Notes under the pieces: model-generated
Database searches by the model: none
Told to the model about the DNA's origin: nothing
Seen by the model: the letters and a program-made list of their open reading frames with translations, nothing else
Origin: Candidatus Nomurabacteria bacterium RIFCSPLOWO2_01_FULL_39_18
GTDB taxonomy: Bacteria > Patescibacteriota > Minisyncoccia > Phycocordibacterales > UBA9973
Assembly (NCBI GenBank): GCA_001787005.1
Contig: MFUV01000005.1
Span: 2,764-66,763 of the forward strand
Direction: 5' to 3'
DNA: 64,000 nt
Made by a program: the position numbers and the translations under genes
Part shown: positions 10,883-56,260 of the stretch, one piece after another
Numbering within the stretch: position 1 is the first letter of the stretch
How the letters are laid out: every line of letters begins with the position of its first letter

Positions 10883-11851
10883 ATGCAAAAAGAAAGAAAA
10901 TACAAAGCAAAAAAGTCGTTAGGGCAAAATTTTTTAAAATCAGAACTGGCTTTAAAAAAAATTATTGAAGCAGGGGAGATAAAAAGGGGTGACATAATTT
11001 TAGAAATAGGACCAGGCAGAGGAGCATTGACCGAAAAACTTCTAGAAAAAGTTTACCTTGCTGGGGCGGGGCAGGGGTTGGTCATCGCAGTTGAAAAAGA
11101 CCGCGAGCTTTTTGAATTTTTAAAAACAAAATTTAAAAAAGAAATAGAGCAACGCTCTCTTGTACTAGTATATGGAGACATATTAAAATTTGATGCAAAA
11201 AAAACTGTTTTGAAGTTTTTTTCAGGTCCTCGGATTCCTGGGTCCCTCCCCCAGCCAGACCATTCAAAAAACTCAAAATCGTCTGATTTTAAAATAATTG
11301 CCAACATCCCCTACAACATCACTGGAGCGATTTTGAAAAAATTTTTAGGAGGGTTAAACCAACCGACAGACATGGTATTGATGGTTCAGCAAGAAGTCGC
11401 GAGGAGGATAATGGCCCGAGATAGTAAAGAAAGTATTCTTTCGATTTCTGTGAAGGCTTATGGTGAACCAAAAATTGTTATGAAGGTGCCAGCGCGATAT
11501 TTCAGGCCTGTGCCGAAAGTAGATTCAGCGATAATCATTATAAAAAATATTTCTCGCAAAATTTTTTCAGTATTACCCCCTCCGCCCAGAAAGTCTAATT
11601 GGGCACCTCCCCCTTATCAAGGGGGAGGTAGTAAAGAAGTTCAAGGTAAAACCTTGAACAGCCATGAATTTGAAGAGAAATTCTGGGAAATAGTGAAAGC
11701 GGGCTTTGCCCATAAGAGAAAAAAGCTCTCCAGTAATTTAAAAAATCTAAAAGACGGAAGCAAGGCTTCCGTCTCGAGCCTGGGAGATAGGAGAGCGGAA
11801 GATTTAACACTAGAAGACTGGATTGCGTTGTGTAAAAAGTGTTATAATTAA
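10883..11851 (+). CDS. rsmA: 16S rRNA (adenine1518/1519-N6)-dimethyltransferase RsmA/KsgA
   Basis: SLGQNFL, ILEIGPGRGALTEKLL, ANIPYNITGAIL. At 322 aa it is longer than typical RsmA because of two GC-rich in-frame inserts (11221-11268 and 11598-11634). Confidence 0.9.
   Translation: MQKERKYKAKKSLGQNFLKSELALKKIIEAGEIKRGDIILEIGPGRGALTEKLLEKVYLAGAGQGLVIAVEKDRELFEFLKTKFKKEIEQRSLVLVYGDILKFDAKKTVLKFFSGPRIPGSLPQPDHSKNSKSSDFKIIANIPYNITGAILKKFLGGLNQPTDMVLMVQQEVARRIMARDSKESILSISVKAYGEPKIVMKVPARYFRPVPKVDSAIIIIKNISRKIFSVLPPPPRKSNWAPPPYQGGGSKEVQGKTLNSHEFEEKFWEIVKAGFAHKRKKLSSNLKNLKDGSKASVSSLGDRRAEDLTLEDWIALCKKCYN
11221..11268. repeat. Intragenic GC-rich element in rsmA (tcaggtcctcggattcctgggtccctcccccagccagaccattc), inverted copy of the pcrA element core
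   Basis: 37 nt identical, and about 48 nt near-identical, to the reverse complement of 9891-9927. Flanked by an A/T-rich imperfect inverted repeat. Encodes FFSGPRIPGSLPQPDHSK in RsmA. Confidence 0.65.
11598..11634. repeat. GC-rich hairpin element cctccccc-ttatcaa-gggggagg inside rsmA
   Basis: 8-bp G/C stem with loop TTATCAA. The same loop and a near-identical stem (ccccctcc-ttatcaa-ggaggggg) occur at 19463-19485 inside another gene. Translated as PPPYQGGGS. Confidence 0.55.
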
Positions 11852-18710: not shown

Positions 18711-19697
18711 ATGGATAAAGAAGAATTACAACAGAAAATAGCATTGTACTACTCAAAGCTTCCACCAAAAGCGCAAGCGGTTTTTTCCAGTATGAAATGG
18801 CTTGAGACTATAAAGAGCATAAGTGAAAAGTACGGCTTAAATGACAAACAGAAAGAGATACTCGGCACGGAAACAACTTTGGTGCTTTTGGGCATAATCG
18901 ATATAATCAAGTATGAAGAAATATTGATAGAAGAACTAGCATTATCGAAAGAGTCTGTAGATAAGATGCTTTCAGAAATAAACGATCTAATTATAAATAA
19001 TATACGACCCGAACTCATTGATGCATTCAACGCAAATAAAAATTCTCTAGAAAAAGAAAACCCAGAAATTGAACCAGTCTTAGACACACGTTTTGGGAAA
19101 TTATCACCGGATTTGGAAAAGATAATTGACGAATCCAATTATCAAGACATTCTCTATGGTATTGGCAAAGAGAAAAATTTCAGCGTTACGAAGATGGGAG
19201 CGCTTGAAAGAGCAACCACTGATCTAATAATGGGTACTATTCATCCAGATGAATTCGAGAATGTGCTAGAGAATAATTTAGAATTACCGCTAGAAAAAGT
19301 CAGAGAACTAGTAAATATTATCAACGAAAGAATTTTCAAAAAAATACGGGAAGAATTGATAAAGAATGTTGAGAGAAAAAAGATATTCGCGAACAAAAAA
19401 GCTGAAGAAAAACAGGATACGCAAGTATTGGGCGCCCACGGCATCGAGATTGTCGAGAATCCCCCCCTCCTTATCAAGGAGGGGGCGGGGGGTGGTAATT
19501 CAGAAGAGAACCACCCCGCCTCTGGCACCCCTCCTCAACAAGGAGGGGAAGAAACGCATCCCATATTAGCGCAAAAGTTATCCGGCCCTTATCAGGCTCC
19601 AGTAGTCAAGACGGACCACTCCTTGCAAAATCTTCAGCCTTCTTCTGAACAACAAAATAAGCCTGTAATTGATCCTTACCGCGAAATTCCGGAGTAG
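18711..19697 (+). CDS. Hypothetical protein (T4SS cluster) carrying a GC-rich palindromic insert near its C-terminus
   Basis: 328-aa ORF. The region 19461-19560 is GC-rich and palindromic (ccccctcc-ttatcaa-ggaggggg ...) and is translated in frame as PPLLIKEGAGGGNSEENHPASGTPPQQGGEE. Confidence 0.55.
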   Translation: MDKEELQQKIALYYSKLPPKAQAVFSSMKWLETIKSISEKYGLNDKQKEILGTETTLVLLGIIDIIKYEEILIEELALSKESVDKMLSEINDLIINNIRPELIDAFNANKNSLEKENPEIEPVLDTRFGKLSPDLEKIIDESNYQDILYGIGKEKNFSVTKMGALERATTDLIMGTIHPDEFENVLENNLELPLEKVRELVNIINERIFKKIREELIKNVERKKIFANKKAEEKQDTQVLGAHGIEIVENPPLLIKEGAGGGNSEENHPASGTPPQQGGEETHPILAQKLSGPYQAPVVKTDHSLQNLQPSSEQQNKPVIDPYREIPE

Positions 19698-19826
19698 AAT
19701 CATGCATCCCGTTAGAGATTAATTAGTTAAAAGTAATAAAAAAGTAAAAATATTATGATAAGTTTAAATAAATTATTAATGGTTATTAAAAGAACGGAAG
19801 TCTAGAGACTTCCTATCTCTAACGGG

Positions 19827-23918: not shown

Positions 23919-23996
23919 GTGAAATTTAATGAGTGAAATGAATATAAATTTCCTCATCCCGTACTAAATTTTAGATTAAATGATATTAAAATAAAA

Positions 23997-25049
23997 ATGA
24001 TTATAAAAGATGAAAATAAATTAAGATTGAGAACTACAAGTAAAATTTTAGTACTGGGATTTATTTTTATACTCATAGGATTTTTTAGTCCGAGTCTAGA
24101 TGTAAACGCTGTGGAACAATACGGAACTTGTAATTGGGTTGAAGCTGAACAGAAAAGGAAGGAAGAAAATTATCTACAAGCAAATTGTTTAGCAAAGGGC
24201 AATACCGCAACTTGGGTAGGTTACTACTATCCCTTGGCTCCATTGCCTGGCTTGGGGAACAGGGAAGATGGAGGAATTGACACCGCGCAAATAGACAGCA
24301 CCGGAAAAAGCATTGCCTTGGGTGCATACCTAAACACAATGATAAAAATAATCATCGGAATTGCCGCAATTTTGTCTGTGGTTATGATTGTGATAGGGGG
24401 GATAGAATACATGACCTCTGAATTAATATCTAGTAAGGAAGCGGGTAAAGAAACAATAAAGAACGCGCTCTTCGGACTTCTGGTAGCTCTTGGCGCTTAT
24501 GCGCTTTTGAATACAATAAATCCGGACTTGCTGAAATCCGACCTAGACGTCCCAGGTGTGACTGTCACAGTAGATCTTGAAGCTGATGTCCCACAGACTT
24601 ATGACCCAGCAACCAGAAAATATGCCAATGGAGCTCTCTTTAACGCGCCATGGAATGACACAGTTGGGGGAATTACCCCAGCATGTACAACAGAAACTGG
24701 TACAGGATGTTTGCCAAGATCAGTTACTGCAAAACAACCAGAATGTTCTACTATTGGTCAACAAAATTGCACTTCAACAAGAGGTCTAAATACTAGTAAT
24801 TTGAGAACAATACAATATGGTTGTGGATGTAACGTATTAATCACTGGTGGAACAGAATGGTGGCTACACGGCGGGCGAAGTGGAAGTACGACCCATCAGT
24901 CTGGAAGTACGACCGTCGACCTTAGAACAACACCTGAATTGACTAGATATCTAATGGGTGGGACAACAGCTCCGGTCGCAGGACGAAGATACCCAACACC
25001 AGTTGGATCGGCATTGTTTGAAGGAAATCATTGGCACATTGGTCCATAA
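23997..25049 (+). CDS. VirB2/TrbC-pilin-like domain (two adjacent hydrophobic helices) fused to a Cys-rich extracellular C-terminal domain
   Basis: Helices KIIIGIAAILSVVMIVIGGIEYM and ALFGLLVALGAYALLNTINP, separated by a short polar loop, as in T4SS pilins. The C-terminal 150 aa have 8 Cys. Confidence 0.45.
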   Translation: MIIKDENKLRLRTTSKILVLGFIFILIGFFSPSLDVNAVEQYGTCNWVEAEQKRKEENYLQANCLAKGNTATWVGYYYPLAPLPGLGNREDGGIDTAQIDSTGKSIALGAYLNTMIKIIIGIAAILSVVMIVIGGIEYMTSELISSKEAGKETIKNALFGLLVALGAYALLNTINPDLLKSDLDVPGVTVTVDLEADVPQTYDPATRKYANGALFNAPWNDTVGGITPACTTETGTGCLPRSVTAKQPECSTIGQQNCTSTRGLNTSNLRTIQYGCGCNVLITGGTEWWLHGGRSGSTTHQSGSTTVDLRTTPELTRYLMGGTTAPVAGRRYPTPVGSALFEGNHWHIGP

Positions 25050-25130
25050 AATAATTTTACTTGTCCCGTACTAAATTTTTGATTACGGGGTATAATGATA
25101 AAAATTAATAAATAAAATTTTAGTATCGGG

Positions 25131-26495
25131 ATGTCAAAAAGAAACTTCACACTTTTAATAATAATTTTAATTCTAGGAACAGTCGGGTTTTTTGTATTTC
25201 TATATTCTCGTGGAGAGACACCTAGAGGAGAGGGAGGCGAGGGCACTAATTTCATCGCAAGGTTTAATCCATTCAGCAACAAAAAACCAGCGCCGGAAGA
25301 CACAGGGCCCACAGAGGATACCTCTTCACCTATAGAAGATCCTGAAGAAAAAATGCTGGAAGTAGAACTAAAAAAAGTTTCAAGTATGGAAATCGCTGGG
25401 TTTGGAGTATTTACGAAAGAAAGATTGAAAGAGATGAACCCCTCTCCAGCCCTCCCCTTGTCAGGGGAGGAAGAGAATCCTGCCCCCCCTGCTAAGGGGG
25501 GTTCGGGGAGTCTGAAACCCACACCGCCACCGACTGAATTTGCAACAGCAGTAAGATATGTGGCGAGAGCTACTGGGAACATTTATCAGACTTTCGCAGA
25601 CAAAATAATTGAGCGAAAGTTTTCTGGAACATTAATACCTAAAGTATACGAAGCGCATTTCGGCAATCATGGGGGATCTGTGGTGATGCGATACTTAAAG
25701 GGGGATGAAAAGACCATAGAAACTTTTTTCAGTGTCCTCCCGAAAGAATATTTGGGCGGTGATGCAACGGAAAACAATGAGATAAAAGGATCATTCTTAC
25801 CTAATAACATAAAAGATATAAGCCTTTCATCTGATACTTCTAAAATATTCTACCTTTTTGAGAGTGAAAGTAATTTAGGAGAAAGCATCATAGGCACAAC
25901 CTTGAGCTTGTTGGACAATAAAAAGGTTCAGATATTTGATTCTCCTTTTACGGAATGGCTGTCATCCTGGCCAAATAATAAAATTATCACCCTTTCCACT
26001 AAGCCTTCTGCGAACACTCCAGGATACATGTACAGCATTGATGGAGTTGGTAAAAACTTAACTAAAATCTTGGGTGATATAAATGGATTAACTACGCTCA
26101 CAAGTCCGGACGGAAAGTTGGTTCTTTACAGTGATAATAATCTAACTTCATATATTTACCATACGGATACTAAAAGTTCGGATTTATTGGGGATAAAAAC
26201 TCTGCCAGAAAAATGTGTCTGGGGGGGCGGGAGTGATATTTTTTACTGCGCTGTACCGAAATTAATTGGCGCTAGCCAATATCCAGATACTTGGTACCAG
26301 GGAGAAGAGTCATTTTCTGACCAAATTTGGAAAATAGATGTTGAAACAGGAAATGCCACCATGATCGAAGACCCGATCATGGCTCTGGGGGGAGAGGATG
26401 TTGATGGCATTAAGCTTGCTTTAGACGAAGGAGAGAGTTATCTATTTTTTGTAAACAAAAAAGATTCTTTTTTGTGGGAACTAAAGCTGAAATAA
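25131..26495 (+). CDS. Membrane-anchored protein with TolB-like beta-propeller repeats; hypothetical
   Basis: N-terminal TM helix LLIIILILGTVGFFVFLY. A GC-rich in-frame insert at 25452-25510. Repeats such as SPDGKLVLYSDNN. Confidence 0.55.
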   Translation: MSKRNFTLLIIILILGTVGFFVFLYSRGETPRGEGGEGTNFIARFNPFSNKKPAPEDTGPTEDTSSPIEDPEEKMLEVELKKVSSMEIAGFGVFTKERLKEMNPSPALPLSGEEENPAPPAKGGSGSLKPTPPPTEFATAVRYVARATGNIYQTFADKIIERKFSGTLIPKVYEAHFGNHGGSVVMRYLKGDEKTIETFFSVLPKEYLGGDATENNEIKGSFLPNNIKDISLSSDTSKIFYLFESESNLGESIIGTTLSLLDNKKVQIFDSPFTEWLSSWPNNKIITLSTKPSANTPGYMYSIDGVGKNLTKILGDINGLTTLTSPDGKLVLYSDNNLTSYIYHTDTKSSDLLGIKTLPEKCVWGGGSDIFYCAVPKLIGASQYPDTWYQGEESFSDQIWKIDVETGNATMIEDPIMALGGEDVDGIKLALDEGESYLFFVNKKDSFLWELKLK

Positions 26496-26578
26496 ATCAC
26501 CACCCCTGACCCCTCCTCGAAAAGGAGGGGAGGTCCCCTCTCCCCCTGCGAAGGGGGAGAGCTTGAAAGGCGAGGGGG
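26496..26578. terminator. Pair of GC-rich hairpins between convergent genes (cccctcc-tcgaaaa-ggagggg and ctctccccc-tgcgaa-gggggagag)
   Basis: Perfect 7- and 9-bp G/C stems immediately after the stop codons of 25131..26495(+) and jag(-). They belong to the same GC-rich palindrome family found inside genes. Confidence 0.5.
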
Positions 26579-36768: not shown

Positions 36769-37052
36769 AGGTGTATCTACTTTCTGGATCATCATCTTCT
36801 GGTTCAAAGCCGGGCATTTCTTCGAGTGGGATATTTGGGTCGAATGACTCTTCATCACCGTCCACCTTAAACCCACTACTTATTTCTTCATCTTCATCGT
36901 AACTCATATAAAATTATTTTTTTCCGCCAGGGGCGGATCCGCCTTGGGCGGAAAATTTTTTAAACGACCAAATTATATTTATTTCCCAATTTCATACTTT
37001 GTAACAAAATATAAATCGCTTGGCAATAGCAAAAAGACCAAAAGTGTGGATA

Positions 37053-37128: not shown

Positions 37129-37608
37129 CTATCCTCTCATATGTGCAAAGGCAGTCAAAGCGATCGCGATCGCGTCTAGCTCATCATCTGATGTTTTAAA
37201 TTTATCTACATCAACCAAAATTTTAACCATTTTCATCATTTGTATTTTGTCTGCTCGCCCAAAGCCGGTGGTGGCTATTTTTATTTGCAAAGGAGTTGCT
37301 TCAAAAATGCGAAGTCCTGCCTGGATGGCTTCGTAGATTACCACTCCCCGCGCTTCAGCCACGCGCATCACTGTTTTTTGATTGGTGTTTAAAAATAAAG
37401 TCTCGATTGAAAGAACTTCCGGCTTGTATTTTTTTATTATTTTTCTGACTTCTCGGCCGATTAGATGCAATCTCTCCGCAAAGTCTAGCGAACTCGAAGT
37501 CTTAAAACATTCGGAAAAAATCATACATTCTTTCGCTCCATTTTCTTTCTTTTCTAATACCGAGATTCCCAATCGTTCGAACCCCGGGTCTATTCCTAAA
37601 ATTCGCAT
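37129..37608 (-). CDS. ruvC: Holliday junction resolvase RuvC
   Basis: MRILGIDPGFERLGISVLE... and DDELDAIAIALTAFAHM. Confidence 0.9.
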   Translation of the reverse strand: MRILGIDPGFERLGISVLEKKENGAKECMIFSECFKTSSSLDFAERLHLIGREVRKIIKKYKPEVLSIETLFLNTNQKTVMRVAEARGVVIYEAIQAGLRIFEATPLQIKIATTGFGRADKIQMMKMVKILVDVDKFKTSDDELDAIAIALTAFAHMRG

Positions 37609-45549: not shown

Positions 45550-45575
45550 TTTTGGATAGGTAAAGTAACCAATAA

Positions 45576-46318
45576 GAGCTTTAGACTCTCACTGCGAGTT
45601 ATGATATAGTAAGATACATGCGGAAGGAACCACTAATAACGGGAGAGTATTACCATATTTATAATAGAGGCGTAGATAAGCGAGATATTTTTAATAATCT
45701 GAAAGATCTCGAGCGTTTTAAAGAAAGCATAAAACAATTTAATCAAATTGAAGGCATTGGTAGTTTAGAAATGTACAATAAATCAATAAGAGCTTTAGGC
45801 TCTCACCCCGACAGTTATCTGAAATTAAAATCAGAACCACTTGTGGCTATCATTGCTTTTTGTATCAACCCCAATCATTTTCATTTTCTTATTAAACAAC
45901 TTGTCGACGGCGGGATAGCTAAATTTTTTCAAAAACTTCAGGGTGGGTATACTTATTATTTTAATCAAAAAAACCAGAGATCGGGGGCACTACTTCAGGG
46001 GACTTTTAAATCTAAATTAATTAAAAATGATGATTATTTCAGAAAAACATTTGCATATGTAAATCAAAATTATTCTGTTCACAATATTCCTAAAAGCAAA
46101 CTTCCTTTTATTTTTGCAAGTGACACGGAATATGAAAGCGAGCTTTTTAATTTAGTGTCAAAGTCTGAAGGACAAAAGATGCTAGACATTTTTGAAGGTA
46201 AGAATAATCTTAAAAAACATTGTAAAGAAATTATATCAATTATTCGAGAAGAACGGGGGAAAACTTCCCTAGAAGAACCGGATGAATTATTTCAGTGAGA
46301 GTCTAAAGCTCTCACTGG
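45576..46318. mobile_element. IS200/IS605-type (RAYT-like) unit: Y1 HUH transposase gene flanked by 20-bp perfect inverted repeats
   Basis: Left AGAGCTTTAGACTCTCACTG (45576-45595) and right CAGTGAGAGTCTAAAGCTCT (46294-46313) are exact reverse complements. The right flank itself forms a 9-bp-stem hairpin. Confidence 0.6.
45618..46298 (+). CDS. IS200-like / REP-associated tyrosine transposase (HUH Y1 family)
   Basis: YHIYNRGVDKRDIF..ERF, HuH motif NPNHFHFLIK, and YFNQKNQRSGALLQGTFKSKLIKNDDYFRKTFAYVNQN (catalytic Tyr region). These align closely with IS200 TnpA blocks. Confidence 0.8.
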   Translation: MRKEPLITGEYYHIYNRGVDKRDIFNNLKDLERFKESIKQFNQIEGIGSLEMYNKSIRALGSHPDSYLKLKSEPLVAIIAFCINPNHFHFLIKQLVDGGIAKFFQKLQGGYTYYFNQKNQRSGALLQGTFKSKLIKNDDYFRKTFAYVNQNYSVHNIPKSKLPFIFASDTEYESELFNLVSKSEGQKMLDIFEGKNNLKKHCKEIISIIREERGKTSLEEPDELFQ

Positions 46319-46835: not shown

Positions 46836-46911
46836 AATACTTGTCCCGTACTAAATTTTTGATTATGACACATGACCATTATTAATAAAAACTTAAAATT
46901 TTAGTACCGGG

Positions 46912-47607
46912 ATGATTTATCTTTTTTCTGGCGATGATGTGAAGAATAAACACCTCTCTTACGAGAAGTTTATAAAATCCCTGCCTGCGCAGGCAGGTAT
47001 TCCAGCGAATACTGAAACCTTTTTTATAAACAGAAATGATTTTAATAGGAATCAGATAGAAAGTCTTTATTCTGGGTCAGGTCTTTTTTTCGAAGATTGC
47101 GTAGTGGTATTCCAAGATGTTTTCGAGAGAGAAGAAACTCGAGAATTTGTTTTAGAGAAGTTGGATTTAATGGGCAAATCTTCCAGCTCTTTTGTTTTTC
47201 TAGAAGGTAAATTAAATAAACCGATTCTAGATGCTTTCAAGAAAATCGAGCCAAAAAAACTCCAGATTAATATTTTCGAATTACCGAAAGAAAAAAAGGA
47301 GAAATTCAATAATTTTCTTCTAGCCAATGCTTTTGGAGTTAGAGATAAATTAAATCTTTGGATTTATTTCCGGCAAGCTGTCGACCTCGGGGTGGGGATG
47401 GAGGAGTTGATCGGAGTACTTTTCTGGAAAATCAAGGATATGCTAATAAAAAAAGATTTCCGCAAATTCTCCGAAGCAGAACTTAAAAATTCCGCCTCTC
47501 GCCTCTCCTACCTTTTACCAGAAGCCCGCAAGGCTAGTCGTGACGCCGAAGCAGTCTTTGAGCAGTTTTTGCTTGAAGCTTTTTTAAAGAGTACTATAAT
47601 TAAGTAG
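46912..47607 (+). CDS. Hypothetical protein, possibly a short DNA polymerase III delta-subunit-like (HolA-like) protein
   Basis: N-terminus MIYLFSGDDVKNKHL resembles HolA starts. Contains the in-frame 18-nt palindrome CCTGCCTGCGCAGGCAGG (LPAQAG) at 46980-46997. The ATG abuts an inverted-repeat right arm. Confidence 0.35.
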   Translation: MIYLFSGDDVKNKHLSYEKFIKSLPAQAGIPANTETFFINRNDFNRNQIESLYSGSGLFFEDCVVVFQDVFEREETREFVLEKLDLMGKSSSSFVFLEGKLNKPILDAFKKIEPKKLQINIFELPKEKKEKFNNFLLANAFGVRDKLNLWIYFRQAVDLGVGMEELIGVLFWKIKDMLIKKDFRKFSEAELKNSASRLSYLLPEARKASRDAEAVFEQFLLEAFLKSTIIK

Positions 47608-47632
47608 TCGGTATCGGGGGGTGTAAAAATCA

Positions 47633-48239
47633 ATGCCTCAACTATATTTTTTGATTTACTGGGCACTTTCGGTTTTTCTGTTTTGGGTGCTTACGCAGCG
47701 GAGAAAAGGGGCTTCGACATTTTTGGTGTTTTTGTCTGCGCTTTTATTAGCGGTGTTGGGGGTGGTACAGTAAGGGAATTCTTCCTAAATGGTTTACCGG
47801 CCTACTTTATTAATTATGATTATCTGCTTGTAATATCTCTTGCTACGATTTTTACTATAGTATTTTTAGAAAGTTTGAGAAAATAAAATATTGGATATTG
47901 GTGATGGATGCGGTTGGTTTAGCAACTTTTGCTTATGTCGGTGCCGCACGGGCTATGGCAGAAAACCTAGGATTTTTGGGGGTTGTGATGTTTGCCATAA
48001 TAACTCCCGCTGGTGGTGATGCCATACGATCAGTTATATCAAGGGAAGTTCCTGCCATTATGTATCGAGACGTATATGCCACCCTGGCGATGCTGTTTGG
48101 TATCGCCTATTTTCTATTGAGGGATTTTAAAGACAATGTATGGGTAGTTTATATTTTGCTTTTAATTATTTTCATTTTGCGTTTATTGGCAATTAAATTT
48201 AATTGGCAGTTATGGGAGCCAAAGAAAAGTTATAAGTGA
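47633..48239 (+). pseudogene. TRIC/UPF0126 (YadS-like, two Gly_transporter repeats) membrane protein gene interrupted by two 1-nt frameshifts in homopolymer runs
   Basis: Three frames together encode MPQLYF|FDLLGTFGFSVLGAYAAEKRGFDIFGVFVCAFISGVGGGTVREF...ESLRK|IKYWILVMDAVGLATFAYVGAARA..GGDAIRS, which is collinear with YadS-type proteins. The frame shifts fall in the T6 run at 47647-47652 and the A4 run at 47880-47883. Confidence 0.6.
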
Positions 48240-48248
48240 TCAGAACTG

Positions 48249-48321
48249 TGCGCCCGGTTGGGATCGAACCAACGACCTTATCCTTAAAAGGGATCTGCTC
48301 TACCGACTGAGCTACGGGCGC
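48249..48321 (-). tRNA. tRNA-Lys (anticodon UUU)
   Basis: Cloverleaf: acceptor GCGCCCG/CGGGCGC; D-arm GCTC-AGTCGGTA-GAGC; anticodon loop CTTTTAA; T-arm GTTGG-TTCGATC-CCAAC. No encoded CCA. Confidence 0.9.
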
Positions 48322-48578
48322 ATGTGTTTTATTAAATTTTTAACAAATTCTCTACCCCTAAAACTTTTTAATTGTCGCTCCCTTTTTATGGCTTCAGTTC
48401 TCGTGGGGAATGCTTCTTTATGGATCAATGCCCACGGACCCCTATTTTGCAAAGTGAACTTACCTAAATGATCACCCCCGTTACTATTATGCTGTTTTAG
48501 TCTGCTATCTATATCGATAGTTTGACCTATATATATCTTATCAGAGGTCTGACTATAAATTGCATAAACTGTGAACAT
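48312..48578 (-). CDS. Small GIY-YIG nuclease-domain protein (UPF0213/YhbQ-like)
   Basis: VYAIYSQTSDKIYIGQTIDIDSRLKQHNS matches the GIY-YIG motif. 88 aa. Its last 10 nt, including the TAG stop, are nt 1-10 of tRNA-Lys. Confidence 0.75.
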   Translation of the reverse strand: MFTVYAIYSQTSDKIYIGQTIDIDSRLKQHNSNGGDHLGKFTLQNRGPWALIHKEAFPTRTEAIKRERQLKSFRGREFVKNLIKHMRP

Positions 48579-48585
48579 AAATTTT

Positions 48586-48628
48586 TCTGCTCTACCTCTG
48601 CCAGCTGGCGGATGAGCTACGGGCGCAT
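48586..48628 (-). repeat. Partial duplicate of the tRNA-Lys 5' end (nt 1-14 and 18-28), with a 17-nt palindromic insert in the D-loop position
   Basis: gatgagctacgggcgcat and tctgctctacc match the tRNA. They are interrupted by tctgccagctggcggat, which is related to the 18-bp palindrome at 1623-1640. The copy lies 7 nt upstream of the GIY-YIG ATG. Confidence 0.5.
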
Positions 48629-48829
48629 CTTGTGATAGTATAAGAAATAAGGCTAAAAATCAAGAAAAATGGTAATATATTAGTATGTTTAAGATCAGCA
48701 AAACGTTGTTGTGCTTTCTAATTTTAACGATAGTAAGTTCTTTGTTTGCTTACACTATTATAGTAAAAGCATACGAAAATGCATATCCCGACTATTTAAT
48801 CCAATAAATTTTCGTGTTAAGGTGTAACT

Positions 48830-51112
48830 ATGACTCAAGGTATTTTCAAGTTGCATAGCCCATTTAAACCAGCTGGCGATCAGCCTGTGGCTATTTTAAA
48901 GCTCCTTGATGGATTAGAGAAGGGCATGCAAAAACAAACTCTGCTCGGGGCAACTGGCACAGGCAAGACTTTTACCATGGCAAATGTGATAGTAGAATAC
49001 AATAAGCCGACATTGGTAATAGCGCACAACAAAACCCTTGCGGCTCAACTAGCTCAGGAATTCAGAGAATTTTTCCCAGATTCCGCGGTGCACTATTTTG
49101 TTTCCTACTATGATTATTACCAACCAGAAGCTTATATGCCGACAACGGACACTTATATAGAAAAGGATGCGCAGATAAACAAAGAAATAGATCGTCTTCG
49201 TCATGCTTCAACCCAAGCGCTTTTGACTAGACGAGATGTTATCATTGTCGCTTCCGTGTCTTGTATTTATGGTTTAGGTTCTCCAGAAGAATATGAAAAA
49301 GTTAATTTAAAAATTAAACTTGGTATGAAAATGGAGAGGCTGACTCTGATGAAACGTCTGATTGAAATTCATTTCGAACGCACAAATGCTGATCTTACCC
49401 CAGGGACTTTCCGATCTATCGGCTCTTGGGTAGAATTTATGCCAGTGTCAGAGACAATAATGTACCAGATTGAAATAGATGATGGGGCTGTCTCAAAAAT
49501 AACCAAAATTGATCCAATTTCTTCTCAGATAATAAAAGAAGAGAAAGATGTTTTTATTTTTCCGGCCAAGCATTTCATCACAGAAGATACGAAAAAGAAC
49601 AAAGCCCTGATTGAAATTAAGAAAGAACTCGCATTGCAATTAAAAAAGTTTCAGAAAGAAGGCAAGTTGCTTGAGGCAGAGCGGATAAAGCGCCGGACCA
49701 ATTACGATCTCGCCATGATCAAGGAAGTTGGTTATTGCAGTGGCATCGAAAATTATTCGCGACATTTATCAGGTAAACAAAAAGGCGAACCGCCAGAAAC
49801 CTTGCTCTCTTATTTCCCCCATACTGGAGATGGCGAACCTGATTTTCTTACCATCATTGATGAATCCCACGTAACTCTGCCTCAACTAGAAGGTATGTAT
49901 GCGGGCGATGCTTCACGCAAAAAAACCCTTGTAGAATATGGTTTTCGCCTGCCTTCAGCTAAGGATAACCGGCCTCTTAAATATGAGGAATTTCAGAAGC
50001 GCATCGGTCCAGTAGTTTATACCAGTGCGACGCCCGGAAAATACGAAATAGAAGAAAGTAAAAAAGAATGTGAACAAACTTGCCCCGCACGAAGTACTCT
50101 TTCGTGCGGGGTCGTAGAGCAAATAATCCGACCAACCGGGCTTGTCGATCCAGAGACAATAGTTCGACCAGTGAGTGCAAATTCTCCTCTTGAGGAGTAC
50201 CCGAAGGGGGAGGTGGATGAATTTTCCACCCCGTCTCGCAAGCGATCCACTCCTCAAGAGGGGAATAAATACCCCGGCCAGATTCAAGATTTTATAAGTG
50301 AAGCAGAGAAAACAATTAAAAAGGGTTTTCGAGTTCTAGCCACCACACTAACAAAAAAAATGGCCGAAGATCTGTCTCTTTATCTCAAAGACCTGCCTGC
50401 GCAGGCAGGCAAGAAAATAAAATCAGAGTATCTGCATAGTGATATAAAAACTTTGGAAAGAATCCAAATACTTTCAAAGTTTCGCAAAGGTGATTTTGAT
50501 GTTTTGGTGGGAGTAAACTTGCTTCGCGAAGGGCTTGATTTGCCCGAAGTGGCGTTAATTGGGATTCTCGATGCAGACAAAGAGGGATTTTTGCGCTCAG
50601 AAACATCTCTTATCCAAACCATCGGGCGTGCCGCGCGCAACAGTGAAGGGAAGGTAATTCTCTATGCAGATGTTATCACTGGCTCGATGAATAAAGCGCT
50701 AGCCGAAACTGCTCGTCGTCGGGATATTCAGCTCACCTATAATAAAAAGCACGGCATCACCCCCAAGACGATAATAAAAAAGATAAAAGATATTACCGAA
50801 GAATTCGAAAGTGAACATGGAAAAGCTGTAAATGCAGAATTAAAACTTGATGTGGAAATATTCCGTAGAGCTTACAAAAAAGAACTGACTAGACCACTTA
50901 AACCAAAAGGTTTAGGCGAATCGCATCTCTCTGATCAAGAAATAGAGGCATTAACCTATGAGAAAATAATAAAAATAAAAGAAAAAGAAATGAATCGAGC
51001 CGTGAAAGAGCTGGATTTCGAAACAGCGGCCATACTTCGTGATGAAATTAGAGTTTTGTCTCAAAAAACTGTTTACGGTACCGGCAATAAAACAAAAAAT
51101 GTAGTTCCTTGA
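48830..51112 (+). CDS. uvrB: Excinuclease ABC subunit B
   Basis: Walker A GATGTGKTFT, beta-hairpin region, helicase motifs, and a C-terminal UvrB/UvrC interaction domain (EIEALTYEKIIKIKEKEMNRAVKELDFETAAILRDEI). At 760 aa it carries about 90 aa of GC-rich in-frame inserts (50082-50116, 50176-50281, 50392-50409). Confidence 0.95.
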   Translation: MTQGIFKLHSPFKPAGDQPVAILKLLDGLEKGMQKQTLLGATGTGKTFTMANVIVEYNKPTLVIAHNKTLAAQLAQEFREFFPDSAVHYFVSYYDYYQPEAYMPTTDTYIEKDAQINKEIDRLRHASTQALLTRRDVIIVASVSCIYGLGSPEEYEKVNLKIKLGMKMERLTLMKRLIEIHFERTNADLTPGTFRSIGSWVEFMPVSETIMYQIEIDDGAVSKITKIDPISSQIIKEEKDVFIFPAKHFITEDTKKNKALIEIKKELALQLKKFQKEGKLLEAERIKRRTNYDLAMIKEVGYCSGIENYSRHLSGKQKGEPPETLLSYFPHTGDGEPDFLTIIDESHVTLPQLEGMYAGDASRKKTLVEYGFRLPSAKDNRPLKYEEFQKRIGPVVYTSATPGKYEIEESKKECEQTCPARSTLSCGVVEQIIRPTGLVDPETIVRPVSANSPLEEYPKGEVDEFSTPSRKRSTPQEGNKYPGQIQDFISEAEKTIKKGFRVLATTLTKKMAEDLSLYLKDLPAQAGKKIKSEYLHSDIKTLERIQILSKFRKGDFDVLVGVNLLREGLDLPEVALIGILDADKEGFLRSETSLIQTIGRAARNSEGKVILYADVITGSMNKALAETARRRDIQLTYNKKHGITPKTIIKKIKDITEEFESEHGKAVNAELKLDVEIFRRAYKKELTRPLKPKGLGESHLSDQEIEALTYEKIIKIKEKEMNRAVKELDFETAAILRDEIRVLSQKTVYGTGNKTKNVVP
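50082..50116. repeat. Perfect 11-bp-stem GC hairpin (ccccgcacgaa-gtactct-ttcgtgcgggg) inside uvrB
   Basis: Translated as TCPARSTLSCGV, between conserved blocks where other UvrB proteins have no such segment. Confidence 0.55.
50176..50281. repeat. About 105-nt GC-rich element with inverted terminal repeats inside uvrB
   Basis: tcctcttgaggagt (50177-50190) and actcctcaagaggg (50264-50277) are inverted copies of each other. The element encodes NSPLEEYPKGEVDEFSTPSRKRSTPQEGNKYP between the conserved IVRP and GQIQD.. blocks. Confidence 0.55.
50392..50409. repeat. 18-nt self-complementary element CCTGCCTGCGCAGGCAGG inside uvrB (LPAQAG)
   Basis: Identical 18-mer at 46980-46997 in an unrelated gene, where it also reads LPAQAG. 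Degenerate copy at 55495-55512 in uvrC (LPTQAS). Confidence 0.6.
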
Positions 51113-51798
51113 TTTTCCTTTGACTCAAACCATATCTTGCCCTGGTGTTGCTCGATGATATTTTTACTTACGTATAGTCCCAAACCAGTTCCATCAGCAT
51201 GATGATGCAACGCGCGAGACGATCTGAAAAATTTTGTAAATATTTTCCCGAATTCTTCCTTAGGGATGCCAATACCCATATCCTTGATTGAAATAACGAG
51301 CTCATGGTCATTACAAGCGACTTCCAGCTCCACCCTGTCTCCCGAGGAAGAATATTTGATAGCATTATCAAAAATATTATTTATAGCCATCTCCATTTTT
51401 TCTATATCTACATTAAGCGGAGGTAGGTCAGGGGGGATTTCAAACTTAAAAACAACCTTCTTTTCATCTCCAATATTTTTAAATGAATCCTTAAGATTTT
51501 TAAATACTGGCAAAATGGATTGTTTCTTCAAAATAACTCCGAAAGATCCCTCCGCAATCTGGCCTACATTCAGAAGATCATTCACCAAGCTGAGCATGTG
51601 GCTCGTGGCTACAGAGGCTTTAGATATAATTTGCTTCTGATCAGGGTTCAATTTACCCGCTTCTCCGGAAGAAAGAATTTCCAAAGACCATTTCAATCCA
51701 ATTAATGGGGTTCTTAACTGATGGGCGGCAATAGTGACAAATTCGGCATTTGGCAAGATTTTTCTTACTTTTTTATGAGATTTTGCCTGTTTCATCAA
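51073..51798 (-). CDS. Cytoplasmic sensor histidine kinase (HisKA + HATPase_c, no TM region)
   Basis: H-box AAHQLRTPL; N-box IFDNAIKYS; G-boxes DMGIGIPKEEFGKIF and GTGLGLYVSKNII. Overlaps the uvrB 3' end by 40 nt on the opposite strand. Confidence 0.85.
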   Translation of the reverse strand: MMKQAKSHKKVRKILPNAEFVTIAAHQLRTPLIGLKWSLEILSSGEAGKLNPDQKQIISKASVATSHMLSLVNDLLNVGQIAEGSFGVILKKQSILPVFKNLKDSFKNIGDEKKVVFKFEIPPDLPPLNVDIEKMEMAINNIFDNAIKYSSSGDRVELEVACNDHELVISIKDMGIGIPKEEFGKIFTKFFRSSRALHHHADGTGLGLYVSKNIIEQHQGKIWFESKENQGTTFFVLLPVP

Positions 51799-51904
51799 TA
51801 TTTGTAATTTTACTAAAATTTGCCAAATAAGTCCAAAATGTATTCACATTTGTGTTCATTGTATATTTGCGCATTTCCCCCACAAATGATATAATTCTAC
51901 CGTT

Positions 51905-52327
51905 ATGGCATCTGACGACAAACAAAAAACTATTGATGGACTTTCCAAGAAAAGAGTGTTGTTAGTTGAAGATGATGTTTTTCTAAGCGACATTATTGCC
52001 CGCAAACTTGTTGCTCAAGGCTGCGTTTTCCTCTACGCGCAAGATGGTGAGAAAGCGCTGCTCCTAGTGGAGAGAGAAGTACCAGATATTATTTTACTCG
52101 ACATTCTTCTTCCTGGCATTAATGGTTTTGATCTGCTTAAAAAATTCAAAGAAAATCCAAAGACTAAAGATATCCCAGTCATCATTCTTTCCAATTTAAG
52201 CCAGCCTAGTGATATAGAGAAAGGCAAAAGCCTAAAAGCTGCCCGTTTCTTAATAAAAGCTACCACCTCGACCGATGGAATAATGTTGAAACTAAAAGAA
52301 GTCCTGGAAGAGAAGAAAAAATCCTAA
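51905..52327 (+). CDS. Single-domain response regulator (CheY-like receiver)
   Basis: VLLVEDDVFL, phospho-acceptor Asp in IILLDILLPG, and the conserved Lys region. 140 aa. Divergent from the histidine kinase. Confidence 0.85.
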   Translation: MASDDKQKTIDGLSKKRVLLVEDDVFLSDIIARKLVAQGCVFLYAQDGEKALLLVEREVPDIILLDILLPGINGFDLLKKFKENPKTKDIPVIILSNLSQPSDIEKGKSLKAARFLIKATTSTDGIMLKLKEVLEEKKKS

Positions 52328-52406
52328 AAAGAAGACTTTTGTATTTTTTCTGCTATACTAAATTTATATACACCCCCTATGAATAAAGTGGGGTGCGGTT
52401 GTATTT

Positions 52407-54977
52407 ATGGCAAAACAAGAAAAAGAATCAAATAAAATAATAATAAAAGGGGCGCGAACACACAACCTTAAGAATATTACGGTTGAAATACCACGAGATA
52501 AGATGACAGTCATTACCGGAGTTTCTGGAAGTGGCAAATCTTCTCTCGCCTTCGATACAATTTTTGCCGAAGGGCAGAGGCGATACGTAGAGTCGTTGTC
52601 TTCTTATGCCCGGCAATTTCTGAATCAAATGCCCAAGCCGGACGTGGATGAAATCACGGGGCTTTCACCCGCTATTTCCATTGACCAAAAATCCCGATCG
52701 AACAATCCTCGCTCCACCGTAGCGACCATTACAGAAATTTATGATTATCTCCGGGTAATGTACGCGCGTATTGGGCACCCGCACTGCCCGGAATGCGGAG
52801 AAGAGATAAAGAAACTTTCTAATGAAGAAATTTTGAATTTTATTCAAAATAAAATCAAAACTCATTCTTCTGTTTCTATTTTTTCTCCAGTCGTTAGAGG
52901 GAGAAAAGGAGAATATTACCAGTTATTGTACGACTTGCTGGGCAAAGGTTTTTCCGAGATTCGGCTGGATGGAACGATGAAAAAGCTTCGGGAGCAAATC
53001 ACCCTCTCAAAATACAAAGCTCACAACATCGAGGTCTTGGTGGATGGTTTTTCGATTGATGGATTAAAAAAAGAAGAATTGCGCATGCGCTTGTCTGAAG
53101 CGATCGAGCGAGCTCTGATTGAATCTGACGGACTAGTCACAACTAAAATTAATGATGAAGAATTTATTATGTCTGCAAAATTTGCCTGCAAAAATGACGG
53201 CTTTTCTTTTCCAGAGATTGAGCCTCGTTTATTTTCTTTTAATTCTCCCTATGGCGCATGCCCAGCTTGTAATGGCCTTGGTTCGAAGTATTTTATGGGA
53301 GACGAACCCTGTGATGTTTGTCATGGTGCGCGCCTTCGCACCGAAGCCCTAAATGTTTTTTTGGAAACTAAAAATAAAAAAGTTAATATTTTAGATCTCG
53401 CTTCTCTCTCCATTGCCGATGCGCATGATTTTTTCAAGAACCTTAAGCTCTCAAGCCAAGAGAAAGAAATATCCATGCCAGTAGTGAGGGAGATAGAAGC
53501 GCGGCTACAATTCATGCTCGACGTTGGGCTCAACTACCTTCAGCTTTCTCGTAAAGCCAATACTCTCTCCGGCGGAGAGGCTCAGCGCATTCGCCTGGCT
53601 TCACAGCTCGGCTCCAGGCTTGTGGGAGCTCTCTATGTGCTCGATGAGCCGACGATAGGGCTTCATCAACGAGACAATGACCGTTTAATCAGAACATTGC
53701 AGAATCTGCGCGATCTAGGCAATACGATTTTAATTGTTGAACACGATGAAGACACTATTTATGCATCAGATTATATCGTAGATATTGGACCGAAGGCTGG
53801 GGTGCATGGCGGGGAAATTATTGTTTCTGGTTTTCTCGAGGATTTATTGACTGCTAACCCCGAACGAAAGCCTACGGCTTCATACGGGGCAGGGAAAAAC
53901 ACGAAGTCCAGAACACTTGGCTATTTAAGAGGTGAGTTAAAAATAGAAATTCCCAAGAAGCGTCGCGGCGGTAAAGGCGCGCTTCGCATCAGCGGGGGAA
54001 AAATTTTTAATATAAATAATTTGAATGTAGAAATTCCGCTTGGCGTCATGACCTCTATCACCGGTGTGTCCGGGAGCGGTAAAAGTTCCTTAATGTATGA
54101 AATTCTTTACAAGAATTTACAGGCGAGGTATGAACGCAAATATCGTACTGCTAAAGTTTACAATTGCTCTTCTTTTTCTGGTACTGAATACCTATCTCGA
54201 GCGATTTTAATTGACCAATCACCCATTGGTCGAACTCCGCGTTCTAATTTGGCAACTTATACGGGCGCTTTTACTCATATTCGAGACCTTTTTGCCACCA
54301 CCGAAGAGGCTCGTCTGCGTGGCTGGAAGGCAAACCGCTTTTCTTTCAACGTCAAAGGCGGCCGCTGTGAAGCTTGTGAAGGCAACGGCGAGATCGCTGT
54401 GGAAATGCACTTTTTGCCGACAGTTTACGTGACTTGCGATGTATGCAACGGCAAAAGATTTGATAAAGAAACACTTACTGTAAAATATAAGAAAAAAAAT
54501 ATTTATGAAGTGCTCCACATGACGGTCGAAGTTGGACTCTCATTCTTCAAGGACATTCCTGCGATTTCTGATCGACTGGAAACTCTGATGGATGTGGGAC
54601 TAGGGTATCTAGAGCTTGGTCAGTCGGCCACCACACTCTCTGGCGGGGAAGCGCAACGGGTAAAAATATCGAGTGAGCTATATCGTCCGCATGCAGATAT
54701 GACCATCTATCTTCTTGATGAACCTACTGTGGGGTTGCACTATGATGATGTGCATAAACTATTGGAAGTGTTAAATAAACTTGTAAGTAAAGGCAACACC
54801 GTCATTCTAATAGAGCACAATCTGGACATTATAAAGAGTTCAGACTACATAATAGATATTGGGCCAGAAGGGGGAATGAATGGGGGTAATTTAGTGGCGA
54901 AGGGCACACCAGAAGAAGTGGCGAATAATACAAAAAGCTACACTGGGAAATATTTAAAGAGGGCTTTACGCAAATGA
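52407..54977 (+). CDS. uvrA: Excinuclease ABC subunit A
   Basis: Two ABC modules ([15 protein letters not shown] and [15 protein letters not shown]), LSGGEAQR x2, and zinc-finger Cys clusters. Carries a 32-nt palindromic insert at 53858-53889 translated as [13 protein letters not shown]. Confidence 0.95.
53858..53889. repeat. CCCCGAACGAAAGC..GCTTCATACGGGG palindromic element inside uvrA, same family as the ruvB insert
   Basis: Its reverse complement, ccccgtatgaagc...ttcgttcgggg, matches the CCCCGTAGGAAGC/TTCCTTCGGGG termini. Both intragenic copies read ASYGAGK in the host frame. Confidence 0.6.
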
Positions 54978-56260
54978 AAATTGAATTAATAAAAAAAATA
55001 CCTGATAAATCTGGAGTCTACTTTTTCAAAAAAGGTAAAGAAATTCTTTACATTGGCAAAGCAACATCACTGAAAGATAGAATAAAAAGTTATTTTGGCA
55101 AGGACTTGATACAAACTAGGGGGCCACTTCTGGTGGATATGATCGTTCGTGCAAATAAAATAGATTGGCAAGAGACAGACAATGTTCTGGAGGCTATAAT
55201 TCTCGAAGCCAACTTGATTAGAAAGCACCAACCCTATTACAACACCAAAGAAAAAGACGACAAAAGTTTCAACTTCGTTTGTATCACAAGAGAAAAGTTG
55301 CCTAGAGTAATTACTGTGCGGGGGAGTAGTGTTAAACACCGAGTGTTTAACAAAATCTACGGACCATATACGAGTGGCGTACATCTTCGTGAAGCGCTCA
55401 AGATAATCAGGAAGATTTTTCCATTTTTAGATGATAAAAGTAAAAATTATATTGAATTTTATCGACAAATAAATTTAATTCCTGACCTAAATGACCTACC
55501 GACGCAGGCAAGTCGTAAACTATATTTGCAAAATATCAAAAATATCAAATTGTTTTTGGGTGGCAAGAAAAAACAAATTTTCAAAAACTTGAAAAAAGAA
55601 ATGCATGAATACGCGAAGAAGCATGAATTTGAAAAAGCCGGAGAAATTAAAAGACAGCTTTTTGCTCTACAACACATCAATGACATTGCTTTATTAAAGG
55701 CTAATAGCTTCGCAGACAGTAAAATTTTTGATCCTGCGCCCTTCTTTGGGCGCAGGATAGGGAACAAAGCGGAACCCTCGGATACAAAAATTTCATTGTC
55801 TGCTTCGCCGATTCGCATTGAGGCCTACGACATAGCTCACATGGGTGGCAAAAATATGGTAGGAGTGATGATAGTAGTTGAAGAAGGTGAACTGGTGAAA
55901 AGTGAGTATAAAAAATTCAGGATAAAAACTCAAGCTGGAGCAAATGATACTGGTGCGCTTGCGGAGATTCTAGAGAGGCGTTTGGCGCACAGAGAATGGG
56001 CATATCCTGATTTAATCGTAGTTGATGGCGGAATAGCCCAAATAAATATGGCTAAAAAAAATTTATCAAGGATTCACCTTGATATTCCCGCAGTGTCGGT
56101 TGTAAAAGACGAAAGACACAAGCCAAAAAGCATTATGGGTGAGAGAGAAATTGTGGCAAAATATAAAAGGGAGATCTTGCTTGCGAACAGCGAAGCGCAT
56201 AGATTTGCCATCGCATACCACAAAAAAATGCGTAATAAAAATTTCCTTAAAATTTATTGA
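54974..56260 (+). CDS. uvrC: Excinuclease ABC subunit C (short form lacking the C-terminal HhH region)
   Basis: N-terminal GIY-YIG (SGVYFFKKGKEILYIGKATSLKDR), UvrBC-binding region (EKAGEIKRQLFALQHI), and an RNase H-like endonuclease domain. 428 aa. Start overlaps the uvrA stop (ATGA). Confidence 0.9.
   Translation: MKIELIKKIPDKSGVYFFKKGKEILYIGKATSLKDRIKSYFGKDLIQTRGPLLVDMIVRANKIDWQETDNVLEAIILEANLIRKHQPYYNTKEKDDKSFNFVCITREKLPRVITVRGSSVKHRVFNKIYGPYTSGVHLREALKIIRKIFPFLDDKSKNYIEFYRQINLIPDLNDLPTQASRKLYLQNIKNIKLFLGGKKKQIFKNLKKEMHEYAKKHEFEKAGEIKRQLFALQHINDIALLKANSFADSKIFDPAPFFGRRIGNKAEPSDTKISLSASPIRIEAYDIAHMGGKNMVGVMIVVEEGELVKSEYKKFRIKTQAGANDTGALAEILERRLAHREWAYPDLIVVDGGIAQINMAKKNLSRIHLDIPAVSVVKDERHKPKSIMGEREIVAKYKREILLANSEAHRFAIAYHKKMRNKNFLKIY

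Follow-up and report, generated by a model that had tools for sequence, protein, structure and literature searches.

P18 copies in the window and their host genes

The window analysed here, a 64,000-nt stretch of the genome of Candidatus Nomurabacteria bacterium RIFCSPLOWO2_01_FULL_39_18 (contig MFUV01000005.1, positions 2,764 to 66,763), carries a holA-like open reading frame (ORF), uvrB, uvrA and uvrC. The holA-like ORF and uvrB are unrelated genes, and each contains the same 18-nt perfect palindrome, CCTGCCTGCGCAGGCAGG, which we call P18; a decayed copy is found in uvrC (Table 1). Both exact copies are read in the frame of the host gene as C|CTG CCT GCG CAG GCA GG|N, giving the hexapeptide LPAQAG, and the peptide across the P18-encoded insert runs ...YLKDLPAQAGKK.... 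An earlier note on this DNA had described these three sites and their reading, and all three were confirmed. As shown below, P18 is a real and recurrent insertion at the DNA level with a defined anatomy; its copies decay as they grow old, and phages have it as well.

Table 1. Features of the window that bear on P18, with positions numbered from the first nucleotide of the window.
Feature	Position	Strand	Description
P18 copy 1	46980-46997		exact CCTGCCTGCGCAGGCAGG, read as LPAQAG in the holA-like ORF
P18 copy 2	50392-50409		exact CCTGCCTGCGCAGGCAGG, read as LPAQAG in UvrB, with YLKD on one side and KKIKSEYLHSDI on the other
Decayed P18 copy	55495-55512	+	CCTACCGACGCAGGCAAG, 14/18 match, read as LPTQAS in UvrC
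Host gene 1, holA-like ORF	46912-47607	+	231 aa
Host gene 2, uvrB	48830-51112	+	760 aa
Host gene 3, uvrC	54974-56260	+	428 aa
uvrA	52407-54977
Gene for a Y1 (HUH) transposase like the REP-associated tyrosine transposases (RAYT)	45618-46298	+	0.7 kb upstream of P18 copy 1; candidate mobiliser only
Left hairpin of the RAYT-like gene	45569-45594		inverted partner of 46293-46318; sequence unrelated to P18
Right hairpin of the RAYT-like gene	46293-46318		CAGTGAGAGTCTAAAGCTCTCACTG
GIY-YIG/tRNA cassette	48248-48626	-	between the two exact P18 copies
tRNA-Lys 5' pseudo-fragment	48587-48626	-	D-loop replaced by the mini-palindrome TCCGCCAGCTGGCAGA (48597-48612)
GIY-YIG ORF	48312-48578	-	overlaps the start of the intact tRNA-Lys
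Intact tRNA-Lys	48248-48321	-

The name holA-like derives solely from one homologue named by the Joint Genome Institute (JGI) as DNA polymerase III delta; Pfam and NCBIfam profile searches of the protein gave zero hits. As the earlier note had also remarked, P18 is GC-rich in an AT-rich background, with a G+C content of 78% compared to 38.7% for the window. As DNA it folds into a hairpin with a 7-bp stem at -6.5 kcal/mol (range given for the DNA hairpin, -6.5 to -8 kcal/mol), and this folding is lost in the decayed uvrC copy. An Rfam scan of the window found no curated RNA family at P18, and only two tRNAs reached the gathering score. The window holds no further site with three or fewer mismatches to P18. 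Base composition predicts 6e-8 exact copies per 64 kb, and none of 100 dinucleotide shuffles of the window contained an exact match; hits with up to four mismatches, the context in which the uvrC site has to be seen, averaged 0.03 per shuffled window. A UvrB of identical protein sequence is encoded by 15 contigs that come from independent assemblies and from more than one assembler, demonstrating that the insert is not an assembly artefact.

Comparison to orthologues shows that P18 was inserted. Among 120 close UvrB orthologues (73-84% identity), 102 lack the insert and have an uninterrupted YLK[DE]-KKIK.EYLHSD sequence, including the closest one, P0001 (84%). All UvrB structures in the PDB are exactly six residues shorter at this point, in agreement with the earlier note, which had placed the segment where E. 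coli UvrB has a shorter linker. Among 80 metagenome loci of more distant origin, no UvrB site that could be recovered had the hexapeptide. In the DNA of carriers, the empty site ...AAA GAT AAA AAA... becomes ...AAA GA[C CTG CCT GCG CAG GCA GG]Y AAR AAA..., i.e., 18 nt are inserted between GA and Y with zero duplication and zero loss. In the holA-like protein, LPAQAG is the sole extra sequence compared to three syntenic orthologues. In UvrC, LPTQAS is an exact surplus of six residues compared to two orthologues, which makes the imperfect uvrC site a genuine, older P18 copy that has decayed. Insertions of the P18 family into tRNA-Gln and tRNA-Lys sequences are likewise clean.

P18 is the result of repeated events and not of a single old one. 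In the UvrB tree, the carriers are scattered. Where the insert occurs in UvrB, the copies of the window and of L345 (loci are denoted by L and a number) are perfect, those of L202 and L346 have one synonymous change each, and that of L203 has seven changes and reads LPAKEG. A decayed 21-mer occupies the same UvrB position in L347, and another lies 6 nt downstream in L344; together with the P18 site, these represent at least three independent events in a single UvrB loop. Among the four LPAQAG carriers, the conserved codons for Leu, Pro, Ala and Gln in uvrB outside P18 have a mean of 1.5 changes per third position, whereas the five P18 codons show 2 synonymous changes in these four lineages vs 7.5 expected (P = 0.02). 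The perfect copies are therefore either younger than the lineages that carry them, or homogenised, or constrained at the DNA level. About one-third of 120 homologues of the holA-like protein have LPAQAG or decayed forms of it at the same site, and the nearest homologues (81-82% identity) lack the insert. Three homologues of superoxide dismutase have it at three different positions.

We considered the possibility that LPAQAG is an ancient linker peptide, transmitted vertically in UvrB and in the holA-like protein, and that the identity of the DNA is incidental. The occurrence of the peptide and its variants LPAKEG, LPAQTG and LSAQAG at the same site in many orthologues is consistent with such a peptide. 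However, the same DNA is found in unrelated genes, non-coding DNA and tRNA genes and is read in all three frames; the carriers are scattered in the tree, the synonymous sites of P18 are less diverged than the rest of the gene, and both distant UvrBs and all solved structures lack the hexapeptide. A protein-level origin is thus very improbable.

Distribution and anatomy of the palindrome family

A genome collection with one genome per species (596 Gb) was scanned for exact P18; the resulting counts are lower bounds. At least 124 exact copies were found in at least 119 loci. The G+C content was below 0.45 in 76 of the 119 listed loci, and at such a composition less than one copy would be expected in the entire 596 Gb. 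A hand count of 80 listed records gave 46 from named Patescibacteria lineages and about 10 from Bacteroidota. The listed Patescibacteria carriers are WWE3, Microgenomates, Woese-, Gottesman-, Beckwith-, Shapiro-, Dojka- and Saccharibacteria, as well as Kaiser-, Nomura-, Yonath-, Zambryski-, Uhr- and Wildermuthbacteria and Paceibacterota; other listed carriers bear labels such as uncultured Gammaproteobacteria, Terriglobia and WOR-3, and a few are isolates. No copy was present in 1.07 Mb of DNA, mostly from the candidate phyla radiation (CPR), that had been selected solely for encoding UvrB. P18 is therefore patchily distributed and not a general feature of the CPR. In the searchable literature we found no description of the P18 sequence or of the LPAQAG peptide, and general searches returned only repetitive extragenic palindromes (REPs), Rickettsia palindromic elements (RPEs) and mitochondrial analogues.

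The hosts of P18 also include genes for superoxide dismutase, EF-Ts, NusB-like proteins, pilins, HsdR and tRNAs, as well as intergenic DNA. A special connection to DNA repair, which the earlier note had implied by speaking of a third DNA-repair gene with inserts, was therefore rejected: the clustering in repair genes is incidental, since these genes are neighbours here and the other hosts are unrelated to them.

P18 was also found in 25 stretches of the IMG/VR viral contigs, and a sister palindrome of 20 nt, P20 (CCTGCCTGCCGGCAGGCAGG), in 35. Composition-matched control palindromes occurred once (control for P18) and not at all (control for P20) in the same contigs. The occurrence of P18 is thus far above chance in the window, in the genome collection and, against matched controls, in viral contigs. 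Neither of the two outcomes that would have refuted the reading of the earlier note, a frequency at the level of chance or the hexapeptide in UvrB of unrelated bacteria, was obtained. Chance, or an artefact of assembly or sequencing, was rejected and has a negligible probability. Nearly all carriers are metagenome-assembled genomes (MAGs), as an artefact would have it; against this stand the shuffled windows, the 15 independent contigs and the near absence of the control palindromes, as well as the presence of P18 in isolate genomes, the synonymous or heavier decay of orthologous copies and the strong frame bias described below.

In GC-rich phage contigs, copies of the family lie in successive intergenic gaps between structural genes. 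In Bacteroidota and phages, the copies are intergenic and nested with other hairpins, occasionally with GTAG before them. In L215/L216 (5704-6377) and L230/L259 (10596-11753), P18 or the 20-mer is found in the intergenic gaps around small ORFs of the structural module, at a spacing of ≈656-658 nt, an arrangement that resembles terminators or cassette boundaries. Within the P18 loci, a search for secondary copies gave 124 exact sites, 5 with one mismatch and none with two or three.

This near-perfection, the conservation of P18 synonymous sites relative to the gene, and the terminator- or REP-like placement between phage structural genes would all suit a selected cis-acting signal, in which the hairpin serves as a protein-binding site, an uptake signal for the DNA of these bacteria, which depend on competence, a terminator or an mRNA stabiliser and spreads by virtue of its function. 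However, P18 arrives by insertion, whereas uptake signals arise by substitution. Its density is low, it is absent from the 1.07 Mb of related CPR DNA and from most orthologues, and it is found in unrelated phyla and phages. Moreover, the persistence of decayed copies (LPTQAS, LPAKEG) indicates that the palindrome is dispensable. We consider a selected signal to be quite improbable as the explanation for P18.

All members of the family have the fixed arms CCTGCCTG...CAGGCAGG. The centres in viral contigs are mostly CCGG (P20) and CG (P18); rarer forms are 21-mers with one extra base, a centreless 16-mer and a few 17- and 19-mers. Because the stem is constant and the loop variable, recognition of a hairpin would fit better than recognition of a duplex site by a rigid dimer. 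In the loci examined, each genome has a single variant: the window and L345 have two P18 copies each, and L204 has two P20 copies, one in uvrB and one in uvrC. No P20 was found in the P18 loci, which total 872 kb. In coding DNA, P20 takes the form of a 21-nt insert that reads LPAGRQG, or is accompanied by a compensating deletion.

The flanks of the 124 listed P18 copies had nothing in common when compared. Among 126 copies, a purine was found at position -1 in 100 and a pyrimidine at +1 in 97, and non-coding copies were alike in this respect. No motif beyond this R|Y step, and no conserved tetranucleotide tag, was present at positions -15 to -2 and +2 to +15 of the 126 copies. Since GGN always encodes Gly, coding cannot explain the +1 pyrimidine, which must belong to the element itself or to the site that it targets. 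There was no target-site duplication: 90 of the 126 copies had no flanking direct repeat, and the repeats of the others were mostly 1-2 nt, which is the level expected by chance.

Being 18 nt long, P18 never breaks a reading frame, and it is free of stop codons in every frame, reading PACAGR, LPAQAG or CLRRQ on either strand. Of the 126 copies, 79 are inside ORFs of 150 aa or longer, distributed as 57 LPAQAG, 14 PACAGR and 8 CLRRQ (chi-square P = 2e-12). In short and presumably non-coding ORFs, the corresponding numbers were 18, 13 and 16 (P = 0.67). Removal of the element from the mRNA would leave no such frame preference. P18 inside genes is translated and filtered by selection, as the strong preference for the LPAQAG frame demonstrates.

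Candidate enzymes and possible origins of the insertions

The product of the RAYT-like gene matches Pfam PF01797 at 30.8 bits (cut-off 23) and the NCBIfam profile REP_Tyr_transpos at 29.5 bits, which is under the cut-off of 80 for that profile. Its PNHFH motif and YIHxNP tyrosine are conserved, and its homologues are named RayT by JGI. The gene is missing at the same position in several syntenic relatives and present in L407-L410. RAYT homologues were found at 149 and 183 nt from P18 (in one Kaiserbacteria and one Saccharibacteria locus, i.e., in two other phyla-level lineages) and at 2.2 kb in a third locus, where ≈0.25 such proximities would be expected by chance (Poisson P about 0.002-0.03). 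P18 is thus located 149-684 nt from RAYT-like genes in three lineages, which we treat as a lead only. Viral contigs contained no relatives of the RAYT-like protein when searched for them, and a search of the loci with E. coli RAYT, IS200 and IS608 queries returned almost nothing.

In the relatives, the stems of the hairpins that flank the RAYT gene co-vary, and the loop, CTTTAGA/TCTAAAG, is constant; the gene itself occupies different genomic places in different Nomurabacteria. L407-L410 have the same PolA-RAYT-PEMT-holA-uvrB synteny as the window, with LAGLIDADG and reverse-transcriptase ORFs (≈13141-13980 and 18759-19760) adjoining uvrB. Throughout the clade of the window, mobile genes have hot spots in the spacers between holA and uvrB and between uvrB and uvrA.

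A second lead is provided by the cassettes of GIY-YIG and tRNA genes. In five Paceibacteria loci, P18 is found at one fixed position of a tRNA-Gln pseudo-fragment; a GIY-YIG gene is present in three of these (L027, L109 and L038), an HNH gene in L037 and neither in L042. A viral contig has P20 in a tRNA-Lys fragment, and a different mini-palindrome is found in a tRNA-Ser fragment elsewhere. The number of P18 copies with a GIY-YIG gene at 2 kb or less exceeds expectation (P about 0.01). These associations are suggestive but do not prove a mechanism. The order of a pseudo-tRNA with a palindrome, an endonuclease gene and an intact tRNA recurs for tRNA-Gln, tRNA-Ser and tRNA-Lys (L027, L109, L038, L037, L009 and L261). 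In the viral contig L254, a 92-nt tRNA-Met (2239-2330), still called as a tRNA by ARAGORN, has P20 as its long variable arm.

The best-supported reading of these data is the one that the earlier note had put forward, that of a mobile palindrome embedded in proteins, and in its behaviour P18 corresponds to a mobile DNA insert, smaller than any so far seen in proteins. Mobility itself is deduced from comparison of sequences and not observed. In our view, P18 probably belongs to a family of ultra-short (16-21 nt), GC-rich, perfect palindromes that act as non-autonomous mobile DNA and are handled in trans as hairpins. A new copy is inserted cleanly, preferably at a purine|pyrimidine step and without target-site duplication, after which selection retains mainly those copies that are in the LPAQAG frame in permissive surface loops; old copies decay through point substitution, as the uvrC copy did. 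The element would be handled as a single-stranded hairpin, with conserved stem and free loop, by a structure-specific enzyme acting in trans. The first candidate for this enzyme is a RAYT-type Y1/HUH transposase, followed by small GIY-YIG nucleases. Filled alleles may also spread between related genomes and phages through recombination.

Several points weigh against this reading. The enzymes named above are candidates only, and the 8-kb P18 loci share no recurring gene family or transposase, only housekeeping families. The hairpins on either side of the RAYT-like genes belong to these genes, differ between lineages and are not P18, and four additional RAYT loci had no P18 within 10 kb. Empty target sites do not show excess structure: their folding energy and the pairing across the insertion point were the same as at random (mean z -0.25, P = 0.34), although individual copies are strikingly nested in other hairpins despite this null average. 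Many large contigs apparently contain 1-3 copies among the matches listed, which is a poor fit with a repeat that proliferates by copy-and-paste. We know of no precedent for a free transposition intermediate of 18 nt. Finally, where copies recur at identical sites, the cause may be recombination, or else precise loss, instead of new insertion.

The main rival to a mobile hairpin is a scar or footprint of break repair, in which P18 was not copied from a resident sequence but was written, or captured, where the DNA had broken. Such breaks could be the work of homing endonucleases, or of an excising element whose 8-10-nt termini stay behind joined head to head. This would account for the perfect symmetry and for the variation of the centre alone (16-, 18- and 20-mers, and 17-, 19- and 21-mers with one odd base), and is consistent with the lack of target-site duplication. 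It also suits a low copy number in many genomes, among the matches listed, combined with an identical sequence across phyla and phages. The proximity to GIY-YIG genes points in the same direction, as do at least four independent arrangements in which a pseudo-tRNA fragment beside a GIY-YIG or HNH gene has a P-type palindrome in its D-arm. In two cases an insertion was accompanied by loss of host sequence, namely 9 nt at the UvrB copy of L204, and 3 nt in the pseudo-tRNA-Lys of the window, where TCCGCCAGCTGGCAGA took their place. However, most host junctions are exact, unlike those produced by end-joining, and 3.4 Mb of loci contained neither a surplus of solo half-sites nor a full-length parent element bounded by CCTGCCTG...CAGGCAGG. 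A large element in essential genes such as holA and uvrB would be lethal before its excision, and the presence of one variant per genome suggests a heritable template. On this evidence, we regard a repair scar as unlikely.

The mobile-hairpin reading can be taken further, to a view that we find possible but hold only tentatively. P18 and its sisters of 16-21 nt would then be the smallest known transposable units, bare hairpins that move as single-stranded DNA among sites, genomes, phyla and phages and are set in motion in trans by nucleases of the HUH (RAYT-like) or GIY-YIG type. The gene-dense Patescibacteria would tolerate them because they are free of stop codons in every frame and, in the case of P18, a multiple of three in length. 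They would constitute a hidden source of the lineage-specific loop insertions of CPR proteins.

Other repeats of the window and comparison with known systems

The window is rich in other hairpins. It has 16 GC-rich perfect hairpins with stems of at least 8 bp, most of them inside long ORFs, vs 0-2 in Markov controls (≈1 expected). Additional lineage-specific inserts with a GC-rich hairpin are found in UvrB, one of 15 aa at 50084-50110 (in 14 of 121 orthologues) and a variable one of ≈27 aa at about 50184-50262, and UvrC has an extra insert of 26 aa with a hairpin at 55731-55758. A family of CCCCTCC...GGAGGGG hairpins lies mostly in long ORFs (11605-11629, 19463-19485, 19528-19548, 25451-25470, 26510-26530 and 26538-26561).

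A second recurrent mini-palindrome, (A)TCCGCCAGCTGGCGGA(T), occurs at 1621-1638 of the window and in L066, L081, L096, L104, L106, L111 and L150, often nested centrally within a larger hairpin; viral contigs had 55 stretches with the 16-mer, a count made without a matched control. A compound palindrome of 36 nt, TTTTCCGCCnnGGGCGGATCCGCCnnnGGCGGAAAA, is built around GGCGGATCCGCC and is found at 36920-36955 of the window, inside a 162-aa ORF, at L203 4542-4581 and at L020 ≈4636-4675; the L203 copy is in frame within PolA (…FSALGGSAPGGK…). A unit of ≈75-110 nt with the inverted arms CCCGTACTAAATTTT ... AAAATTTTAGTACCGGG is present in three copies (23941-24060, 25048-25132 and 46838-46913), the third of which has its end on the holA-like start codon. 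The unit may be regulatory, or else a small miniature inverted-repeat transposable element (MITE). Inverted repeats of 56 nt (9882-9937 and 11216-11271; 93% complementary) enclose 1278 nt, and a perfect inverted repeat of 23 nt is located at 9864-9886/9933-9955. The sequence GCGATCGCGATCGC at 37160-37173, a single occurrence, consists of two overlapping HIP1 octamers.

Among known systems, the closest to P18 in function are the RPEs, which are palindromic repeats of ≈100-150 bp found in frame in many Rickettsia genes (PMC10969869). P18 and the RPEs alike are selfish palindromes of small, AT-rich genomes; they insert in frame into unrelated ORFs and add a conserved, translated peptide. However, the much longer RPEs are restricted to Rickettsia, while P18 has 18 nt, is perfect, and occurs in a Nomurabacteria MAG and, in identical form, in many Patescibacteria lineages, other phyla and phage contigs. 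The two are not similar in sequence.

Next closest are the REPs, described as extragenic sequences of 20-40 nt with a GTAG or CGTC tag at one end (PMC3733652). Like them, P18 is a short GC-rich hairpin repeat, and a hairpin-flanked RAYT-like gene is located near its first copy. P18 forms a hairpin, but with 18 nt falls below the REP size range. It is mostly intragenic in the CPR, as are all three copies of the window, and has no GTAG or CGTC tag, although GTAG precedes a few viral copies of the 20-mer. REPs flank their RAYT genes; here, the local RAYT-like gene is flanked by a hairpin other than P18. In addition, REPs are imperfect, species-specific and present in hundreds of copies, whereas P18 is perfect, identical across phyla and, among the matches listed, apparently of low to moderate copy number.

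A third group of analogues, the GC clusters of yeast mitochondria and the 18-nt PstI palindromes of Neurospora mitochondria, are GC-rich, scattered in compact AT-rich genomes and optional between strains. Some GC clusters lie in frame in a coding gene (var1), and they are found near tRNA genes and free-standing endonuclease genes. P18 is likewise a GC-rich palindrome scattered in a compact AT-rich genome. However, the mitochondrial palindromes are organellar and eukaryotic, have other sequences and are mostly 30-60 nt long, while P18 is carried by bacteria and phages and crosses phyla.

MITEs share with P18 a non-autonomous nature, a structure that is essentially an inverted repeat, and presence/absence polymorphism. 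They are 50-500 bp long, derive from identifiable insertion sequences and generate target-site duplications, none of which applies to P18, which consists of just two abutted inverted arms of 9 nt. HIP1 (GCGATCGC) of cyanobacteria and DNA uptake sequences accumulate by substitution and reach very high densities. They resemble P18 as short over-represented palindromic or oligomer motifs, which genes also contain in frames that are tolerated, but P18 has 2-3 copies per 64 kb and none in 1.07 Mb of related DNA, and every copy checked was an insertion.

If P18 is truly mobile, the lower size limit of mobile DNA would be 16-21 nt, and a bare hairpin would be able to spread across phyla and phages. 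P18 gives some of the short, so far unexplained insertions in conserved CPR proteins a concrete origin in the DNA, and provides a sequence tag by which recombination and horizontal exchange among uncultured lineages can be traced, and a simple substrate for probing the abundant RAYT-like proteins and small GIY-YIG nucleases of these organisms. Among selfish palindromic mini-insertions, the P18 family is unusual in its size of 16-21 nt, its perfect symmetry, its stop-free design and its spread across phyla and phages.

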